Shown one piece after another: positions 3,640 through 43,177 of a stretch of DNA of 64,000 nt (within the stretch, counting starts at the first letter, position 1; each line of letters begins with the position of its first letter). The stretch lies in sequence record MK639187; one strand, given 5' to 3'. The translations under genes and the position numbers were made by a program. Source of the DNA: Shigella phage SSE1. The notes beneath the pieces are model-generated. The model saw nothing but the letters and a program-made list of their open reading frames with translations. It was not told the DNA's origin and searched no databases.

Positions 3640-4740
3640 ATGAAAGTTATGTTTATCCCATCTCGTGCAGTCCCATTTAATCCTGACCGTGTACAAGGTG
3701 GCCTTGAAGCAGTACATTTAAATGTGTTGAAATATCTTGTGTCCATCGGTGCTGATATTGATTATATCGGCTTTGATAATGACACGTTTGGTGACTGGAA
3801 AGTTACACACCATCCTGTTGGTCATCTGGCTAAATTCAGTCTAGGTATGAGTTATACTATGGCTCGTAAGATTGTTGAACTAGCCAGCATTAATGAATAC
3901 GATTTCGTTGTTACAATGGAACCGACCAAACTAACGGTCCAAGCAATTAAAGATGCTGGACTCTCTAAAGTTCATAAGAATTTTATGGCTACACCGTTTG
4001 AACCGGTGTCTCGTGGTATTGTTCAAATTTGGGATCAGACTATCCAGATTCACAAGAACGGTGGGAAGAGCTATGCTCCTACTAAAGCATTCCGTGAATT
4101 TGAACGTAAATATTGTCATATGACTTCAGCTCTTACTGACAAAATTGATTATGACTACTGGCGTGAAAATCCATTATTTGAACCTGATGACTACCCGGTT
4201 ATTTGTTTGAATGAAAAACCTGAAGTTCTTCCGGCAACTGAGTTGATTATTAGTGCTCAACGTTATGACACTAAGATGCGTCGCACTGATGTTGCTCTTG
4301 AAGCAATTAAAGCACTAGGCGAAAATGGTATTGGTTATTGTCCAAGCAAATGGGCACCACCAGCTAAATATCCTGTTATTATTGATGCTCCACACAGTGA
4401 AATCATGGAACGTCTTAAAACAGCTAAAGCACTTATTAATACATGCCCTGACACAGGTACGGTAGAGAATAGTTCTATTGAAGCTATCTCTAAAGGTGTC
4501 CCCGTAATCCAGTTAGTTTTTAAGGATTATCCTCATGCGACATTCGAATACGACCCAGATACTGTGCGTGTAGAAATTGATTCCTCTACTCCTAAGAAAG
4601 AAGTAGTTGCGCTTTACACAAAAGCTGTATTAGAATTCACTGACACATACGAAGCTCGAGTTAAACGTGCTGAAGCAGTATGGAAGAAGTATAACCGAGA
4701 TGCAGTTGTTGCGATGTGGGATAAAATCTTCACAGCGTAA
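3640..4740 (+). CDS. GT-B fold glycosyltransferase (GT4-like); candidate DNA hydroxymethylcytosine sugar transferase
   Basis: 366 aa; N-terminal MKVMFIPS...GGLEAV resembles the Rossmann start of GT-B enzymes; C-terminal TGTVENSSIEAISKGVPVI matches the GT4 donor-binding motif; sits between gp39 and rIIA. Confidence 0.6.
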   Translation: MKVMFIPSRAVPFNPDRVQGGLEAVHLNVLKYLVSIGADIDYIGFDNDTFGDWKVTHHPVGHLAKFSLGMSYTMARKIVELASINEYDFVVTMEPTKLTVQAIKDAGLSKVHKNFMATPFEPVSRGIVQIWDQTIQIHKNGGKSYAPTKAFREFERKYCHMTSALTDKIDYDYWRENPLFEPDDYPVICLNEKPEVLPATELIISAQRYDTKMRRTDVALEAIKALGENGIGYCPSKWAPPAKYPVIIDAPHSEIMERLKTAKALINTCPDTGTVENSSIEAISKGVPVIQLVFKDYPHATFEYDPDTVRVEIDSSTPKKEVVALYTKAVLEFTDTYEARVKRAEAVWKKYNRDAVVAMWDKIFTA

Positions 4741-4832: not shown

Positions 4833-5033
4833 ATGAGAACATATAACGTGGACTTGGACCTTTTTGATAAAGCGGTGCTCCGGGAATTCCGGCTTATCCA
4901 AAGATTTTTTGATATCGAGTCGGCAGAGTCCTTTAAAGAACGCTTTAAAGAAATTCGATATAAAATACAAACCGATACAGCTACTAAAGAAGAACTTCTT
5001 GAAGTAGCAGAAATTTTTAAACGTAACTTGTGA
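4833..5033 (+). CDS. hypothetical small protein (rIIA.1 position)
   Basis: 66-aa ORF immediately upstream of rIIA. Confidence 0.45.
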   Translation: MRTYNVDLDLFDKAVLREFRLIQRFFDIESAESFKERFKEIRYKIQTDTATKEELLEVAEIFKRNL

Positions 5034-5045
5034 TGAGAGAAAAAT

Positions 5046-7259
5046 ATGATTATTGAAACGGCTAAAGAAACGATTATTGGTTCAGGCGGTAAGAGCACAG
5101 CATTTACTATTCAAGGCAATAGCAAAGTTTATAAGATTTTGTCTAATGACCTTTATACAAACAAAGAATTGGCTTGTGTACGTGAATTAATCACAAACTG
5201 TATCGATGGTCAAATTCTTAATGGTTGCACTGATAAGTTTATTGTTCAGGCTCCAGGTCGTTTAGACCCACGTTTTGTAGTTCGAGACTTTGGTCCTGGT
5301 ATGAGTGATTTCACCATTCGAGGTAATGACGAAGAGCCAGGAATCTATAACTCATATTTTGCTTCAACTAAAACATCGAGTAACGATTTCATTGGTGGAT
5401 TCGGTCTCGGCTCTAAAGCTCCACTAGCATATACCGATACGTTTAACCTTACGTCTTATCACAATGGTGAAGTTCGTGGTTATGTAATCTACCAAGATGA
5501 CACAGGTCCACAGATTAAGCCGACCTTTGTAGATAAGATGGGTCCTGATGACCGTACGGGTGTAGAAGTAGTTGTACCGGTTAACCCGGAAGATTTTGAA
5601 AAGTTTGCATCCGAAATTGCATATGTTATGCGTCCTCTAGGTGATATTGCAGAAGTTCGTGGTGTTAAAGATATTAAATACTTCCCAGAATTTGATGATG
5701 TATATTTGGCCAAGGAAGCTCCATGGGGTGAACGTGGTAATATCATGGCTGTTTATGGCGGTATTGTATATCCAATCGGAAGTGTTATTAAAGAACAAAC
5801 ATGGATGATGACACGATGCACTACAGCTTATATTAAATTCCCAATGGGTGAACTAGATGTTGCTCCGTCTCGCGAAGCATTGTCATTTGATAAACGTACA
5901 GTAGCAAATATCCATAAACGCGTTGCAGAAATCGATGCTAAATTGTTCGCTGAAGATTCTAAGAAATGGATTGATTGTAAATACCCACGACATGTGTTCC
6001 GCGAAATTGATTCTCTTGGCTATACCGCTCGTAAATACATGGAAAAGGCTGGGTCTAATATTGAATCACTGAAATACTCTAAAGAACAACTAACTTATTC
6101 TGAGTTGTACAAACGTTTTAAAATGGGACCTGAGTGGTGTAATCTTGGTGTCGTATACGATATCGTTGAATCCCCTCGTCTTCGTCGTATTCGTGAAAGT
6201 GGTAGCTCATCATCAACCATTTCAATTAACAGCCTGATTGGCATTAACATTAAAAACGTTGAAATTGTTATTGACGATGTTAAGGGACGCGTTCCATTAA
6301 TGCGAGCTCTTAATTCAATTGAAATGTCTAAAGACGAGGTTAAATTATCCGGTAAAGTTCCACGCGGTTTTGGTAAAAGCGTACTATTCGTTGACCCTAC
6401 AGACGAAGACGCAATGAAACTTCTGGAACGCCTTAAAGTTATCTTTGATGGCGACAACATTAACATGTACAAGACTTCAGAGCTTTTACAAATCGTTAAG
6501 CCATGGATTGAAGTCAGGAAACGGACTAATGAGCCTCGTCCTAAATCCCCGAGTGCTCATCGATTCTTTAAGAATGAAAACGATGTTTGGGTATCAGAAG
6601 ACCTCTTTATTCCGGCAAGTGAAGCAGATGAAATCCAAGGTTATGCTATAGTTCGTAATCGTTCTAATGCTGAATGTCTTGACGCAGATAAAGGTTGGTT
6701 GAACTATGACTCCAATTTCTTGACCCGTATTGCTGATTTGTCAGGTATTAAAGAGTTCACTGTAGTTCGTCCACAGATTGCTAAGAAAGTTCGTAAACTT
6801 GGTGAAGTAGAATGCTTGTTCGAAAAATCAATTAACGACTATATTACGCTAATTGATAAAGTGGATTATGATGAGTATGTATCACCAAGTCGTAGAGCAC
6901 AGCCTTATTTGAATCATATTACTCGTAATGAAGAGCTTAACTTCCTTAGTAAGTATTTTAGCTCTAAAAACAAAGAAATCAGTAAAGATTTTGCAAAACT
7001 CTCAACAGTAAATAATCGTTGGGGATGGAATCGATTCGCAGGTGCTACTAATACAGACCTGAATAAGAAGTTAGAATTGTGTGCTAAAATTTTCGATAAG
7101 CTTAAAGATAATGCTTACGATAATGATGATAAAATGGTTATTGAATTCGAAACCAATTATCATATTGTGTCAGAATACATGGGACGACGTGGTACTCTTT
7201 CCAAAGAACAGGTCGCTCAAATCGTTAAATTCATGAAGGCCGTGGAAGCGGCCAAATAA
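5046..7259 (+). CDS. rIIA: rIIA protein (GHKL-type ATPase, lysis inhibition/RexAB sensitivity)
   Basis: 737 aa; N-terminus MIIETAKETIIGSGGKS...SNDLYTNK...VRELITN and length match T4 rIIA (725 aa) as recalled. Confidence 0.9.
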   Translation: MIIETAKETIIGSGGKSTAFTIQGNSKVYKILSNDLYTNKELACVRELITNCIDGQILNGCTDKFIVQAPGRLDPRFVVRDFGPGMSDFTIRGNDEEPGIYNSYFASTKTSSNDFIGGFGLGSKAPLAYTDTFNLTSYHNGEVRGYVIYQDDTGPQIKPTFVDKMGPDDRTGVEVVVPVNPEDFEKFASEIAYVMRPLGDIAEVRGVKDIKYFPEFDDVYLAKEAPWGERGNIMAVYGGIVYPIGSVIKEQTWMMTRCTTAYIKFPMGELDVAPSREALSFDKRTVANIHKRVAEIDAKLFAEDSKKWIDCKYPRHVFREIDSLGYTARKYMEKAGSNIESLKYSKEQLTYSELYKRFKMGPEWCNLGVVYDIVESPRLRRIRESGSSSSTISINSLIGINIKNVEIVIDDVKGRVPLMRALNSIEMSKDEVKLSGKVPRGFGKSVLFVDPTDEDAMKLLERLKVIFDGDNINMYKTSELLQIVKPWIEVRKRTNEPRPKSPSAHRFFKNENDVWVSEDLFIPASEADEIQGYAIVRNRSNAECLDADKGWLNYDSNFLTRIADLSGIKEFTVVRPQIAKKVRKLGEVECLFEKSINDYITLIDKVDYDEYVSPSRRAQPYLNHITRNEELNFLSKYFSSKNKEISKDFAKLSTVNNRWGWNRFAGATNTDLNKKLELCAKIFDKLKDNAYDNDDKMVIEFETNYHIVSEYMGRRGTLSKEQVAQIVKFMKAVEAAK

Positions 7260-7268
7260 GGAAACATT

Positions 7269-8216
7269 ATGTACAATATTAAATGCTTGTCCCAAGAAGA
7301 ACAGTTAGAAGCTTACGGCCTGGTTGAATCAGGCAAATGGACTCGTAAAGAAATTGCCGATTACTTCGACATTTCAACAGATACTCTTCGTAAGATTGTT
7401 AAGAATTTTAAAGCAGAAGGCGTTGTCCCTGAAGCAAACGATGCCTCTTATGTAATCGAAGAAGTTCCAGAAAATGATGAACCTATTATCGGCGGACATC
7501 GTCCTGAAATCGTATGGAACGCGTCATCTAAATTTATTTCAATTATTGAAGGACGCGTAGCATACAATGCGACTCCATCAAGTCATGCAAATTTTGAAGA
7601 AATTAAAGCTAATCTGGTCGCAGGAAACCTTAGTAAAGCTGTCGAACTTATTAACATCAAGAAAGCTATTAGTAAGTTTGTTGACGGTAATGTTGTTATT
7701 GAAGGTGGTAGTTTATTTTATCAAGGTATAGAGATTCGTTCTGGCCTGGTTAATCGTATTATTGATTCTATGGAAAAAGGCGAAGACTTTAAATTCTATC
7801 TACCGTTCCTTGAAAACCTGTTAGAAAACCCAAGCGAAAAAGCTGTACAACGTTTATTCGACTTCTTGGTTGCAAATGATATTGAAATCACTGAAGATGG
7901 GCATTTCTACGCGTGGAAAGTAGTTCGTAAAGATTATTTAGATTGCTATAGCGGTACATTTGATAACTCACCAGGTAAAGTTGTTTCAATGCCTCGTACT
8001 CGTGTTAACGATGATGATACACAAACCTGCTCCCGTGGTCTACATGTTTGCGCTAAATCGTATATTCGTTACTTTGGTTCTAGCTCAGATAAAGTTGTTA
8101 AGGTTAAAGTTCATCCACGTGATGTTGTATCTATCCCAGTTGACTATGGCGATGCTAAGATGCGTACTTGTCGTTATGAAGTAATTTCAGACGTTACTGA
8201 ATTATTTGCAGAATAA
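7269..8216 (+). CDS. rIIB: rIIB protein
   Basis: 315 aa directly downstream of rIIA; T4 rIIB is 312 aa. Confidence 0.85.
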   Translation: MYNIKCLSQEEQLEAYGLVESGKWTRKEIADYFDISTDTLRKIVKNFKAEGVVPEANDASYVIEEVPENDEPIIGGHRPEIVWNASSKFISIIEGRVAYNATPSSHANFEEIKANLVAGNLSKAVELINIKKAISKFVDGNVVIEGGSLFYQGIEIRSGLVNRIIDSMEKGEDFKFYLPFLENLLENPSEKAVQRLFDFLVANDIEITEDGHFYAWKVVRKDYLDCYSGTFDNSPGKVVSMPRTRVNDDDTQTCSRGLHVCAKSYIRYFGSSSDKVVKVKVHPRDVVSIPVDYGDAKMRTCRYEVISDVTELFAE

Positions 8217-8221
8217 TAATT

Positions 8222-8244
8222 GGGGACTTCGGTCCCCTTTTTTC
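8222..8244 (+). terminator. intrinsic terminator, UUCG tetraloop hairpin
   Basis: GGGGACTTCGGTCCCC followed by TTTTTT. Confidence 0.75.
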
Positions 8245-8257
8245 TTTAGGGGTAATT

Positions 8258-8545
8258 ATGATTCATCCATTTGACGTATCAGAATCCAAAATTGCTAATC
8301 TTCGTGGTCATCATAAGTGTAAATCAGTTTATTGTGCTAAATTGGTAAAACATCCTGGCGATGCACACTATGGTTGGTTAGAATGCGACGAAGTTGTTAT
8401 TGAAATCCCACCGGTAGATGCAGAATATCTTGAAGAAGGTGACCGCATTTATTTTGGCGAACTACACATCAGAGGTATCTATGGTAAAGACGAACTTGGG
8501 ACTGTTGAGACTGAAGAATCTTCCGACATTTATCCTGTCGAATGA
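8258..8545 (+). CDS. hypothetical protein
   Basis: 95-aa ORF with AGGGG spacer before the ATG. Confidence 0.45.
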   Translation: MIHPFDVSESKIANLRGHHKCKSVYCAKLVKHPGDAHYGWLECDEVVIEIPPVDAEYLEEGDRIYFGELHIRGIYGKDELGTVETEESSDIYPVE

Positions 8546-8561
8546 GTTTTTGACTAGTGAA

Positions 8562-9038
8562 ATGAAGGTGAAGATTGCTGACACTGCTCGGTATTCCCTG
8601 AGCCAAAATCCTGACCAAAACAAAGAAGACGTTGTTCGACGTTGTAAGGTTGCAGTCTTTGCAGAGTATGTAGTAGCAAATTGGCTAGACGGATATGTTA
8701 ATAAAGGTAATGAAGACGTAGAAGACCCGTACACGTATGCATGGGACGTTTTAGCTCATCCTAAATACTGCGGGTTACGTGTCGAAGTCAAGACGCACCA
8801 GATCGATTCTAAATGGATTTCGGTTACCACAGGATACAGTGGTGATTATCCAGGTGGCAACGGAATCAACATAGGGCCCTTCTTGAATCATCGAGTCGCA
8901 GATTGCATTATTATATTAGATGTCAAAGAAACCTCACCTGACGTCTTCTCTTATTCTATAAAGTTCGTGGGAGACCATGAGGACCTAAAGAAAATCGTCC
9001 GCAAGAGCAACTACAACGGGTGGTATCTTCATCTTTAA
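8562..9038 (+). CDS. hypothetical protein (positional candidate for denB, unverified)
   Basis: 158 aa from the ATG at 8562 just after the upstream stop; the track ORF 8418..9038 overlaps 8258..8545 in another frame, so the internal Met is preferred. Confidence 0.35.
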   Translation: MKVKIADTARYSLSQNPDQNKEDVVRRCKVAVFAEYVVANWLDGYVNKGNEDVEDPYTYAWDVLAHPKYCGLRVEVKTHQIDSKWISVTTGYSGDYPGGNGINIGPFLNHRVADCIIILDVKETSPDVFSYSIKFVGDHEDLKKIVRKSNYNGWYLHL

Positions 9039-9050
9039 TTTCATAAAAGT

Positions 9051-9087
9051 GTTTACAACTAAGTAGGACTATGATATAGTAGTCCTA
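9051..9087 (+). promoter_or_regulatory. early promoter (GTTTACA -35, TATAGT -10) with inverted repeat around the -10
   Basis: GTTTAC 9051-9056, TATAGT 9075-9080; TAGGACTA 9064-9071 pairs with TAGTCCTA 9080-9087. Confidence 0.55.
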
Positions 9088-9106
9088 TCTAAAAGAGGAT
9101 AACATT

Positions 9107-9370
9107 ATGAAATTTAAATTTTTCTACGCAAAACATAAAGTAACAGGCGAATTTGTTTCAATGTACAACACCGCCGATGACGAAGGGATGATTTATACTC
9201 ATTTAGGTCTATCTCATTGGGACTCAGACGTGCCTTATATGTCATCTGAAGCCGAAATAACTCGTTTAGTTAACGGACATATGAACGACCATTTTAGTGT
9301 TATTCTTTCTAAAGACCTTAAAGAGGTTATCAACAAAGGATATATGGAACTCGCGGAAGTTGAGATATGA
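9107..9370 (+). CDS. hypothetical small early protein
   Basis: 87-aa ORF downstream of a promoter cassette. Confidence 0.45.
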   Translation: MKFKFFYAKHKVTGEFVSMYNTADDEGMIYTHLGLSHWDSDVPYMSSEAEITRLVNGHMNDHFSVILSKDLKEVINKGYMELAEVEI

Positions 9371-41188: not shown

Positions 41189-41227
41189 GTTTACAACATG
41201 GTGGAGTTGTGATACTATAACTCTACC
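41189..41227 (+). promoter_or_regulatory. early promoter (GTTTACA, TACTAT) with inverted repeat around the -10
   Basis: GGTGGAGTT 41201-41209 pairs with AACTCTACC 41219-41227 (8 of 9). Confidence 0.5.
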
Positions 41228-41246: not shown

Positions 41247-41483
41247 ATGCTAAGTGAAAACCCAATTACAGTACACGAATTTCAGATTAAAGTAAAAGAA
41301 TTTGCTCAAGCACTCATCAATAAAGTGTCTGAACGTTTCCAAGATGCAACATTACGAGTTATTCAAGAATCTCCACGTTCTTTTCTCATAATCGTTAATC
41401 CTAAAGATGGTGACCAAATTACTAATCTTAAATTAGGCAGTGATGGTCTTGTTGAAGCAACTCGAGTATATGGAACACTATAA
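41247..41483 (+). CDS. hypothetical small protein
   Basis: 78-aa ORF. Confidence 0.4.
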   Translation: MLSENPITVHEFQIKVKEFAQALINKVSERFQDATLRVIQESPRSFLIIVNPKDGDQITNLKLGSDGLVEATRVYGTL

Positions 41484-41603
41484 TGAGAGCTATCTCATTA
41501 CTATCGTGAATGGTCATAAATCTGAGCACTACCAACTTAGCCTGTCTAATCCGGTTAAAGGTATTGTTGAATCAGAATCTGTTTATATCTCCTAAGGATT
41601 GTT

Positions 41604-42596
41604 ATGTTACCTGTCATCAGAAAACTTATTTCTCCAAAAGAACTGGCTGAGATTATTCCTTTGTCGGAAGCTTACGCATCACAAGTGGCTTCTCATCGCG
41701 AACAAGTTAATTCGATTATGAACGGTGAAGACCCACGCAAACTTATTGTTGTAGGTCCTTGTTCAATTCATGACCCTATTGCTGCTGTTGAATACGGCAA
41801 ACGTCTGGCTGAACTTCAAACTCGTCTTCCTAATGTTCTGTTAGTGATGCGCGTTTATTTTGAAAAGCCTCGAACTACCGTAGGTTGGAAAGGTCTTGTA
41901 AATGATCCATATCTTGACGGAAGTTTTGATATGAACCACGGTCTTATAGTTGCACGAACATTGTGTCGTAAACTTCTACGTATGGGACTTCCATTAGCAA
42001 CTGAAGTATTAGACCCATTCACGATTAAGTATCTTTCTGGTATTTTCTCATGGGTTGCTATTGGCGCCCGTACGACTGAAAGTCAGACACATCGTGAAAT
42101 TGCTTCAGGTCTACCGATGTGCGTAGGCTTCAAGAACGCAACCAATGGTTCTATTAAAGTAGCTACAGACGCGATGTATAGTGCCGCCTGGCCTCATCGG
42201 TATATGGGTATGGACGTCGATGGTACTGTAGGCATTGTTGAAGCTGAAGGTAATCAGAATACGCATATCGTATTGCGTGGCGGGACTAACGGCCCGAACT
42301 ATCATTCTTCTGATATTCAAGAAGCTTCTAACAAAGCAAGTGCATTAGGTCTGAATCATTATGTAATGGTTGACTGTAGCCATGCAAACGCTGATGGGTA
42401 TTATAGCAATCAAATTGGTATTGGTAAAAATTTAGCAGCTAATGATTTGGTCAAAGGAATTATGATAGAATCATTCCTACATGAAGGAAATCAAAAAATT
42501 TCTGATAATATGTCCTATGGCGTTTCCGTTACCGATGCGTGCATCGGTTGGGAACAAACTAAAGAGCTGTTAACTTATATTAATAAGGTTCAATAA
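41604..42596 (+). CDS. DAHP synthase homolog (3-deoxy-7-phosphoheptulonate synthase, class I AroG/F/H-like)
   Basis: 330 aa; blocks VVGPCSIHD, MRVYFEKPRTTVGWKGLVNDP, IGARTTESQTHRE, DCSHAN and ESFLHEGNQ correspond to conserved class I DAHP synthase / KDO8P synthase family segments. Confidence 0.8.
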   Translation: MLPVIRKLISPKELAEIIPLSEAYASQVASHREQVNSIMNGEDPRKLIVVGPCSIHDPIAAVEYGKRLAELQTRLPNVLLVMRVYFEKPRTTVGWKGLVNDPYLDGSFDMNHGLIVARTLCRKLLRMGLPLATEVLDPFTIKYLSGIFSWVAIGARTTESQTHREIASGLPMCVGFKNATNGSIKVATDAMYSAAWPHRYMGMDVDGTVGIVEAEGNQNTHIVLRGGTNGPNYHSSDIQEASNKASALGLNHYVMVDCSHANADGYYSNQIGIGKNLAANDLVKGIMIESFLHEGNQKISDNMSYGVSVTDACIGWEQTKELLTYINKVQ

Positions 42597-43177
42597 TGAA
42601 AGCTAGCACATATCTTCAAATTGCTTATTTGATTTCTCAAGAATCAAAATGTTGTTCATGGAAAGTTGGTGCCGTCATTGAAAAAGATGGACGCATTATC
42701 TCTACTGGATATAATGGCTCACCCGCAGGTGGCGTTAACTGTTGTGAACATGCATCCGAAAATGGTTGGTTGAAGAATAAACCAAGCCCGGTCATCGTTG
42801 CTGGACATAAAGAAGGCACTACAGCATTTGGACGGGCAGATAATTTTGTTTTGGCTAAAGAACATCGGGCCGCTCATAGTGCATGGTCTGCTAATAATGA
42901 AATCCATGCAGAATTGAATGCAATTTTGTTTGCAGCTCGTAAAGGTAATTCTATTGAAGGTGCTACGTTATATACTACGCTTTCTCCATGTCCTGATTGC
43001 ACTAAAGCTATTACGCAGTCAGGTATTAAAAAGGTTGTATACGCAGAATTATACGATCGATCTCCTGAAAATTGGGCAGACATTCTAAAACAAGCCGGTA
43101 TTGAAGTAATTCAGTACTCTCGTAATAATCTTCGTTCTCTGAATTGGGAACAAATCCGAAACTTTTGTGGTGAATAA
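42596..43177 (+). CDS. cd: dCMP deaminase
   Basis: 193 aa, same length as T4 Cd; zinc-binding deaminase motifs HAELNA and PCPDC. Confidence 0.92.
   Translation: MKASTYLQIAYLISQESKCCSWKVGAVIEKDGRIISTGYNGSPAGGVNCCEHASENGWLKNKPSPVIVAGHKEGTTAFGRADNFVLAKEHRAAHSAWSANNEIHAELNAILFAARKGNSIEGATLYTTLSPCPDCTKAITQSGIKKVVYAELYDRSPENWADILKQAGIEVIQYSRNNLRSLNWEQIRNFCGE

Follow-up and report, generated by a model that had tools for sequence, protein, structure and literature searches.

Introduction

[quoted passage not shown] In AroG, the P150L variant is fully feedback-resistant, Gln151 and Ser180 (Gln152 and Ser181 in AroF) touch the bound inhibitor, with S180F being resistant, Asp155 forms a salt bridge that stabilizes the inhibitor site, and both F209A and F209S are feedback-resistant (PMC9529685, a review of DAHPS feedback resistance). 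Deletion of Ile11 gives a feedback-resistant AroF (PMC10729320), and the yeast ARO4-Q166K allele is a published feedback-resistant variant (PMC5879953). Here, we describe a phage-borne member of this family, encoded by a 330-residue open reading frame (ORF) with an ATG start at positions 41604-42596 (+) of a 64,000-nucleotide stretch of Shigella phage SSE1 (sequence record MK639187; this whole stretch is referred to as the window). Its catalytic core is conserved and the residues of its inhibitor site have been replaced.

As a gene call, this ORF is ordinary. Here, the window matches Escherichia phage PNJ-6 at 100% identity and the phages HX01, ST0 and pEK20 at 99.9% (all four are Mosigvirus), and their records already annotate the ORF as a phospho-2-dehydro-3-deoxyheptonate aldolase or DAHP synthase. 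The family also has its own entry, PHROG 5045, filed under the first of these names in the category 'moron, auxiliary metabolic gene and host takeover', and passing mentions of a gene of this kind, presumed to be metabolic, occur in two genome papers (PMC11845039, PMC8022965). The gene itself is thus already known, and the novelty implied by the original prediction, a reading of the letters and their ORFs alone, was overrated; the call adds nothing that would warrant a claim of discovery or a tie to DNA arabinosylation. What is new is the combination of a conserved catalytic core with a systematically ablated or re-tuned feedback pocket, and its parallel in a second phage lineage.

Fold and catalytic site

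By family and by fold, the ORF is a class I-α DAHP synthase. Its Pfam, NCBIfam and PDB scores place the resemblance to DAHP synthase far above chance: Pfam DAHP_synth_1 (PF00793) is matched with E = 1.8e-74 and 250.5 bits (cutoff 25.5), the NCBIfam models TIGR00034 (aroFGH) and NF009395 with 426.8 bits (cutoff 173.2) and 454.1 bits (cutoff 343), respectively, and the best relative in the PDB is E. coli AroF (PDB entry 6agm; E = 3.9e-104). The match to PHROG 5045 (E = 2.3e-181) extends over residues 1-330, aligned with positions 8-337 of the 341-position profile. Sequence identity is 51% with E. coli AroF, 48% with AroG and 45% with AroH. The AlphaFold2 model of the protein (predicted local distance difference test, pLDDT, 94.6; predicted template-modelling score, pTM, 0.92) is an AroG-type (β/α)8 barrel, which Foldseek superposes on PDB entries 1gg1, 8e0u and 4hso (E. 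coli AroG and Neisseria meningitidis DAH7PS) with template-modelling scores of 0.95-0.96 and root-mean-square deviations of 1.3-1.6 Å. The original prediction had assigned the ORF to this family from five motifs; its coordinates proved to be exact, and all of the motifs were located in the translation (GPCSIHD at residues 51-57, RVYFEKPRTTVGWKGL at 83-98, IGARTTESQTHRE at 153-165, DCSHAN at 257-262 and ESFLHEGNQ at 289-297).

The metal ligands Cys53, His260, Glu289 and Asp311 (C61, H268, E302 and D326 in AroG) are invariant in all 25 sequences of the T4-like phage clade delineated below and in all of the bacterial sequences. The residues for phosphoenolpyruvate (PEP) and erythrose 4-phosphate (E4P) are conserved throughout the clade (25/25): Arg83, Lys88-Pro89-Arg90-Thr91, Ala155, Arg156, Lys177 and Arg225, that is, the AroG substrate contacts R92, K97, P98, R99, T100, A164, R165, K186 and R234. 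Because metal ligands and substrate contacts are both conserved in 25/25 sequences, the enzyme is very likely to be catalytically competent and would convert PEP and E4P into DAHP and inorganic phosphate; the earlier view that it is probably active agrees with this, every catalytic residue being intact.

KdsA, the 3-deoxy-D-manno-octulosonate 8-phosphate (KDO8P) synthase, and the DAHP synthases belong to one PEP-utilizing aldolase superfamily, and the original prediction had named the KDO8P synthase reaction as the other one of this family. We rejected a KdsA-like specificity: DAHPS models alone were matched in NCBIfam and Pfam, no KdsA model being among them, and the active site is of the DAHPS type, including its KPRT motif.

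The inhibitor site is rebuilt in the phage clade

The phage enzyme shares with AroF, AroG and AroH identical metal ligands, PEP site, KPRT motif and (β/α)8 fold, but differs from all three in having five inhibitor-site residues replaced, an N-terminus shorter by about 8-11 residues and a four-residue deletion (AroG 289-292). We called a position clade-fixed when one residue is common to at least 90% of the phage sequences and a different one to at least 90% of the bacterial sequences. In the entire protein, this holds for only six positions: P150I, Q151K, D155G, S180P, F209Y and T223A (AroG numbering). Five of the six belong to the 11 inhibitor-site residues taken from the review cited above (PMC9529685), an enrichment with a hypergeometric p of 6e-8 for a list that was picked post hoc. 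The phage counterparts, Ile141, Lys142, Gly146, Pro171 and Tyr200, are invariant in 24-25 of the 25 sequences, down to 57% identity, and a second panel of 120 bacterial sequences gave the same contrast between phages and bacteria at the inhibitor site.

Two deletions are clade-fixed as well (25/25 each), of AroG residues 2-8 and 289-292, and the window protein, which had been described as full length, lacks both segments. It starts at the position that aligns with AroF Ile11, AroF residues 2-10 being absent, and in the clade as a whole 48-52 residues precede the catalytic cysteine, compared with 58-95 in the bacterial proteins. In AroG, Asp6 and Asp7 of the adjacent subunit contribute to the Phe site. 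The set of features that marks the inhibitor site of AroF, AroG and AroH (P150, Q151, D155, S180, F209 and the N-terminal segment) is therefore not found in the window protein. An alignment with the three E. coli enzymes had been proposed as a check; the catalytic residues are retained, as anticipated, whereas those for feedback inhibition have been systematically replaced.

The altered positions are those of the laboratory feedback-resistant alleles (AroG P150L, S180F and F209A/S, AroF with Ile11 deleted and ARO4 Q166K). Aro4 P165-Q166 corresponds to AroG P150-Q151 and to phage I141-K142, as confirmed on the sequence of the Aro4 structure, and the phage clade thus carries the exact Gln-to-Lys change of ARO4-Q166K. 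Unlike the laboratory alleles, the phage changes are natural, combined (five substitutions and an N-terminal deletion) and fixed clade-wide. The phage residues at positions 150, 180 and 209 (I, P and Y, respectively) differ, however, from the laboratory ones, and for these we infer the effect. Because the inhibitor pocket is rebuilt and lacks the N-terminal strand that would complete it, the phage DAHPS is predicted to ignore Phe, Tyr and Trp.

The ORF also scores below the cutoffs of the AroG-specific (364 versus 568) and AroH-specific (384 versus 463) NCBIfam models. Together with the replaced inhibitor site, these scores mean that GenBank labels such as 'aroF, Tyr-sensitive' are not justified, and reading the enzyme as deregulated would correct such misleading labels. 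Like AroF, the phage DAHPS has a glycine at the position of AroG Ser211.

A monophyletic T4-like clade and a second phage lineage

By tblastn, the gene was found in 212 phage records, 139 of which are Mosigvirus at 95% identity or above; the number of phage genomes with the gene is about 190. Other carriers include Kanagawavirus (77%), Proteus Bragavirus (58%) and, at 67-69%, EcS1 as well as Klebsiella Marfa-like, Serratia CHI14/X20 and Erwinia phages. In a search of 5.8 billion proteins, the top 24 matches (319-343 residues, 57-98% identity) come, wherever they are named, from T4-like phages, and the next best are bacterial enzymes from Planctomycetota, Kiritimatiellota and Pseudomonadota with 50-55% identity; a recent donor among bacteria is not visible. 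In a neighbour-joining (NJ) tree computed from a MAFFT alignment of 25 phage and 95 bacterial sequences with E. coli AroF, AroG and AroH, the 25 T4-like phage sequences are monophyletic in 200/200 bootstraps. This clade is under purifying selection, with ratios of non-synonymous to synonymous rates (dN/dS) of 0.14-0.20 between genera, at which synonymous sites are saturated. The G+C fraction at third codon positions (GC3) of the window gene is 0.29, like that of the neighbouring phage genes. A recent capture of a host aroF was considered and rejected, since the nearest bacterial sequences are this distant and from mixed phyla, E. coli AroF itself is only 51% identical and the GC3 is phage-like.

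A second phage DAHPS lineage, 38% identical to the window protein, comprises the enzymes of Aeromonas phage HJ05, whose 79-kb genome is not T4-like, and of three metagenomic relatives. Its nearest bacterial matches are at 40-46% identity, and its genome backbone, which carries ParB-like and methyltransferase genes, is unrelated to that of the T4-like phages. As in the T4-like clade, every catalytic residue is kept and the same five allosteric positions are altered, here to A, H/S, P, P and V at AroG positions 150, 151, 155, 180 and 209, respectively. In contrast to the truncation seen in the T4-like clade, the HJ05-type enzymes have a long His-rich N-terminal extension. The two are not sister lineages: they join in only 13/100 NJ bootstraps and are equidistant from bacteria. 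Independent acquisition followed by convergent remodelling is a likelier history than deep common ancestry, and such convergence adds weight to a regulatory interpretation of the changes.

Genomic slot and accessory cassette

The features of the locus are collected in Table 1. The flanks form a T4-type block (pseT ... cd.3, cd.2, cd, 31.1 (WYL_2), 31 and rIII), and the dCMP deaminase gene cd adjoins DAHPS, as had been pointed out, the two overlapping as TAATG. In T4, the order is pseT, cd.5, cd.4, cd.3, cd.2, cd.1, cd, and the DAHPS slot is filled by cd.1, which encodes an unrelated protein of 112 residues; the statement that T4 has nothing alike at this position is thus correct. The slot just upstream of cd also holds DAHPS in Klebsiella phage Marfa, Proteus phage PM2 and Kanagawavirus Entb_45 and PEi26, and likewise on the T4-like contig of P0020, the metagenomic member that diverges most. 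The Mosigvirus gene has in common with its PHROG 5045 relatives (Kanagawavirus PEi20/Entb_45, Marfavirus, Winklervirus CHI14, Bragavirus PM2 and EcS1) this slot and the signature D-P-I-K-G-P-Y, but differs from them in that it is part of a 1.1-kb cassette, together with a cd.2 fragment and a flanking repeat, and is absent from some isolates.

In Mosigvirus, DAHPS is an accessory cassette. Two copies of a 19-nt repeat, 16/19 identical and spaced 1113 bp apart, bracket a 1113-bp segment that is missing from RB69; this phage has no DAHPS gene, and its cd.2 stop directly overlaps the cd start. The same 'empty' junction is present in 11 records, namely RB69 (two), mar005P1 (five), JK36, JK42, moha and ECO111 5-P, while about 93% of the Mosigvirus records (about 139 of about 150) have kept the gene, which occurs in at least six genera. 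Between cd.2 and DAHPS lie 120 nt, which encode a 41-residue ORF that aligns with the C-terminal half of Kanagawavirus cd.2 (scores of 66 and 56, reached by 0/500 shuffles) and weakly with the resident Mosigvirus cd.2 (score of 30). The Kanagawavirus DAHPS, the closest to that of the window (77%), is directly preceded by cd.2. The 41-residue ORF is a diverged remnant of a Kanagawavirus-type cd.2, of which it represents the 3' half, and was left as a scar of cassette import; the simplest history is that a segment made up of this cd.2 3'-fragment and DAHPS recombined from a Kanagawavirus-like phage into an RB69-type junction. The empty junctions could be either ancestral or later deletions across the repeat; in both cases, neither growth nor DNA modification requires the gene.

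As to expression, the T4 record has an early promoter in the cd.3/cd.2 gap, at the same relative position as the early-promoter-like site of the window. The latter would likely drive cd.2, the small ORF, DAHPS and cd, and the scan found no dedicated promoter or terminator directly upstream of DAHPS. An early expression of the phage enzyme is what this arrangement suggests. The RB69 dCMP deaminase (cd, RB69 locus 7743-8252) is annotated with 169 residues, compared with 193 in the window and in T4.

Table 1 Features of the DAHPS locus (positions in the window) and of the second-lineage loci (positions in their own records)
Feature	Position	Strand	Basis or remark
DAHP synthase (class I-α) coding sequence, 330 residues, PHROG 5045	41604-42596	+	Hidden Markov models (HMMs), PDB, fold, alignment
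Shine-Dalgarno AAGGA, 5 nt before the DAHPS ATG	41594-41598	+	Direct sequence reading
Cys53 codon, metal ligand (AroG C61)	41760-41762	+	Invariant, 25/25 of the phage clade and all bacterial sequences
His260 codon, metal ligand	42381-42383	+	Invariant
Glu289 codon, metal ligand	42468-42470	+	Invariant
Asp311 codon, metal ligand	42534-42536	+	Invariant
K88-P89-R90-T91 codons, KPRT motif for PEP and E4P-phosphate binding (AroG 97-100)	41865-41876	+	Conserved 25/25
I141-K142...G146 codons, replacing AroG P150, Q151 and D155	42024-42041	+	Alignment; site roles from PMC9529685
P171 codon, replacing inhibitor-contacting AroG S180	42114-42116	+	Alignment; PMC9529685
Y200 codon, replacing AroG F209	42201-42203	+	Alignment; PMC9529685
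dCMP deaminase (cd), start overlapping the DAHPS stop	42596-43177	+	ORF list, profile matches
Resident cd.2 homologue (DUF7320, PHROG 1504)	41247-41483	+	Profile matches
41-residue ORF, PHROG 15876; bas47_0049 in phage Bas47, unannotated in HX01	41470-41595	+	Alignment to Kanagawavirus cd.2
Putative early-promoter-like site, cd.3/cd.2 gap (GGTTTACA ... TG-TACTAT; TTTACA-17-TACTAT, extended TG)	41190-41218	+	Consensus match
Left copy of the 19-nt imperfect direct repeat, ATAATGAGAGCTATCTCAT	41480-41498	+	Sequence comparison
Right repeat copy, ATAATGAAAGCTAGCACAT, over the DAHPS stop and cd start; identical to the RB69 'empty' cd.2/cd junction	42593-42611	+	
Second-lineage DAHPS in 79-84-kb non-T4-like phage	HJ05, 4899-6062; second locus (L016), 8001-9161		

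Relation to DNA arabinosylation

According to the summary in PMC13326640, Mosigvirus DNA contains arabinosylated 5-hydroxycytosine, a modification reported for RB69 too, and the UDP-arabinose steps from ribulose 5-phosphate (Ru5P) are assigned to arabinose-5-phosphate isomerase, AfhE and AfhF; the pathway as it is summarized there contains no enzyme resembling DAHPS. The arabinose genes of RB69 (gp45-55) lie between the DNA polymerase gene and uvsX, a region that is outside the 64-kb window. A 366-residue ORF at 3640-4740 (+) of the window is 97% identical to RB69 ORF003c, a proposed DNA arabinosyltransferase, and is listed in PHROG 8302 as 'unknown function'.

The original prediction had tentatively linked DAHPS to the modification sugar through this glycosyltransferase and had suggested comparing the distribution of the gene with the type of modification. 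The link is not supported: RB69 has the arabinose genes and lacks DAHPS, and the UDP-arabinose steps are assigned to other enzymes in the summary of PMC13326640. Like RB69, the Mosigvirus isolates moha, JK36, JK42, mar005P1 and ECO111 5-P lack DAHPS. Since RB69 and about six other DAHPS-less Mosigvirus isolates share arabinosylated DNA, DAHPS lies outside the modification pathway: it is neither present wherever the modification is made nor a step that the pathway contains or needs.

Across T4-like phages, the DAHPS bearers appear to be a subset of the carriers of an AfhE-like module (Klebsiella records number 25 with DAHPS and 25 with the module, and Proteus records 7 and 7), while Tequatrovirus has neither. 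Both are present in EcS1, CHI14, PEi20/PEi26, phiP4-3, Pm5461, KLB31 and vB_SdyM_006; the module without DAHPS is found in Acinetobacter phages, Dhakavirus, Yersinia TG1 and RB69. Klebsiella is absent from the top organism names listed among the arabinose-5-phosphate isomerase matches, although 25 Klebsiella records carry DAHPS, and the association of DAHPS with the sugar module is confounded by shared ancestry. On these grounds, and given the DAHPS-less isolates, we rejected a role of DAHPS in the arabinosyl-5-hydroxycytosine pathway.

Homologues of the AfhE-like kinase/nucleotidyltransferase (41-43% identity) occur in Dhakavirus (Bp7, IME08 and QL01) and in Klebsiella Marfa-like phages. Both groups are missing from the listed isomerase matches, which hints at other nucleoside diphosphate (NDP)-sugar DNA modifications.

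Possible roles of the phage enzyme

We lean towards the reading that the gene encodes an early-expressed, feedback-insensitive and catalytically competent DAHPS that keeps the entry to the shikimate pathway open during infection, which is the auxiliary metabolic role that the original prediction had offered as one of its options. T4-like phages have long carried DAHPS in the slot just upstream of cd, and its transcription most likely starts early, from the conserved cd.3/cd.2 promoter. Once transcription of the host has been shut off by the phage, induction of the host aro genes under TyrR/TrpR control would no longer be possible, and a constitutively active phage enzyme at the flux-controlling first step would maintain the flow of carbon into the host shikimate/chorismate pathway. 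This flow could supply aromatic amino acids and the precursors of folate and quinones; which downstream product matters (aromatic amino acids, chorismate-derived cofactors or the removal of E4P/PEP) is conjectural. We are about evenly divided on a broader proposal, namely that T4-like phages carry a naturally evolved 'feedback-blind' DAHPS, in which ablation of the pocket has been fixed by selection, was reached independently in the Aeromonas lineage and is spreading between genera as a small cassette.

Several points weigh against an open, deregulated shikimate entry. In the searchable literature, we found no functional study of a phage DAHPS and neither biochemical nor genetic data on one. 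The promoter scan overall gave no more sites than shuffled sequence, so that the putative promoter rests on its consensus match and positional homology. Differences within the genus number only 13 (nine non-synonymous and four synonymous), which leaves a selection test powerless at that level. The later steps of the shikimate pathway depend on enzymes of the host, which may become limiting for flux once the host is shut off, and any benefit must be conditional, RB69 and other Mosigvirus isolates lacking the gene. Finally, the residues now present at the five positions (I, K, G, P and Y) are themselves invariant across the clade, which could mean that the pocket was re-tuned to another ligand instead of being lost.

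This last possibility can be developed into an alternative in which the pocket responds allosterically to some other, perhaps phage-specific, metabolite (a nucleotide or a sugar phosphate) and couples shikimate entry to the state of infection; in its more exotic variant, it would sense a new phage-specific effector. The near-invariance of Ile141, Lys142, Gly146, Pro171 and Tyr200 resembles constraint and not decay, and the new lysine and tyrosine could bind an anionic ligand. The HJ05 lineage, however, has changed the same positions to different residues, which fits the loss of an old site better than a shared new one, the N-terminal segment that helps to close the pocket is deleted and no candidate ligand is known, so we regard re-tuning as unlikely. 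We give slightly less weight again to a carbon-flux valve, in which an irreversible drain of E4P and/or PEP would pull transketolase (fructose 6-phosphate + glyceraldehyde 3-phosphate → xylulose 5-phosphate + E4P) and the central metabolism towards pentose phosphates for nucleotides and for Ru5P-derived DNA arabinose. The apparent nesting of DAHPS phages within those carrying the AfhE-like NDP-sugar module, the origin of arabinose from Ru5P (as summarized in PMC13326640) and the position of the gene among nucleotide-metabolism genes would fit such a valve. Yet there is no direct evidence for it, shared ancestry confounds the association, many phages with the arabinose module have no DAHPS, as listed above, and the Klebsiella isomerase pattern runs counter to it; moreover, the oxidative pentose-phosphate branch and transaldolase already carry such fluxes.

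Two further explanations seem to us very improbable. The enzyme might use another sugar phosphate, for example arabinose 5-phosphate in the manner of KDO8P synthase, for the modification of DNA or of virion glycans, given the superfamily shared with KdsA, the production of arabinose 5-phosphate by the phage and the ORF003c-type putative arabinosyltransferase of the window. But all of its E4P and PEP contacts are of the DAHPS type and DAHPS HMMs alone were matched, RB69 is without the gene and yet reported with arabinosylated DNA, the UDP-arabinose steps are otherwise assigned (both in the summary of PMC13326640) and a long distance separates the gene from the modification cluster. A neutral hitch-hiker, that is, a moron without benefit kept through its linkage to cd, is just as hard to credit: the gene is dispensable in RB69-type isolates and moves as a cassette, as a passenger might, but its catalytic residues are invariant, its dN/dS between genera is low, its codon composition is fully ameliorated to that of the phage and it has been retained in most Mosigvirus records and in several genera.

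If the phage DAHPS is indeed feedback-blind, then shikimate/chorismate entry would limit the yield of T-even-type phages in nature, and the enzyme would offer a clean case of a lytic phage deregulating a committed host biosynthetic step instead of importing a whole pathway. The Mosigvirus isolates with and without the cassette are a built-in natural experiment, which makes this regulatory interpretation directly testable. Natural feedback-resistant DAHPS scaffolds may also be of use in biotechnology and metabolic engineering.

DAHP synthases in other viral records

In a scan of IMG/VR, all ten T4-like loci (10/10) have the signature D-P-I-K-G-P-Y and a short N-terminus. More than 50 further loci, from giant-virus metagenome-assembled genomes (MAGs) and other viruses, have 54-95 residues before the cysteine; about 40 of them read exactly P-Q-D-S-F and most of the others differ at one position. 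The giant-virus MAG enzymes (GVMAG contigs) are also of class I-α and 42-47% identical to the window protein, but their N-termini are all longer than those of the T4-like clade. Because the giant-virus copies mostly keep the canonical residues, the remodelling is particular to the two tailed-phage lineages described above and is not a trait of viral copies in general.

The aroF contigs of 'Acinetobacter phage MD-2021a' were rejected as phage copies, being flanked by cob (cobalamin), clpA/clpS and argC and hence bacterial; such bacterial contigs binned as phage inflate the counts of 'phage' DAHP synthases. Fecal 'Bacteriophage sp.' contigs, unverified and of another subfamily, were set aside. 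Finally, two putatively viral genomes of 1.8-2.0 Mb in IMG/VR (L070 and L073) carry a variant signature, S-P-A-P-D-G-F.

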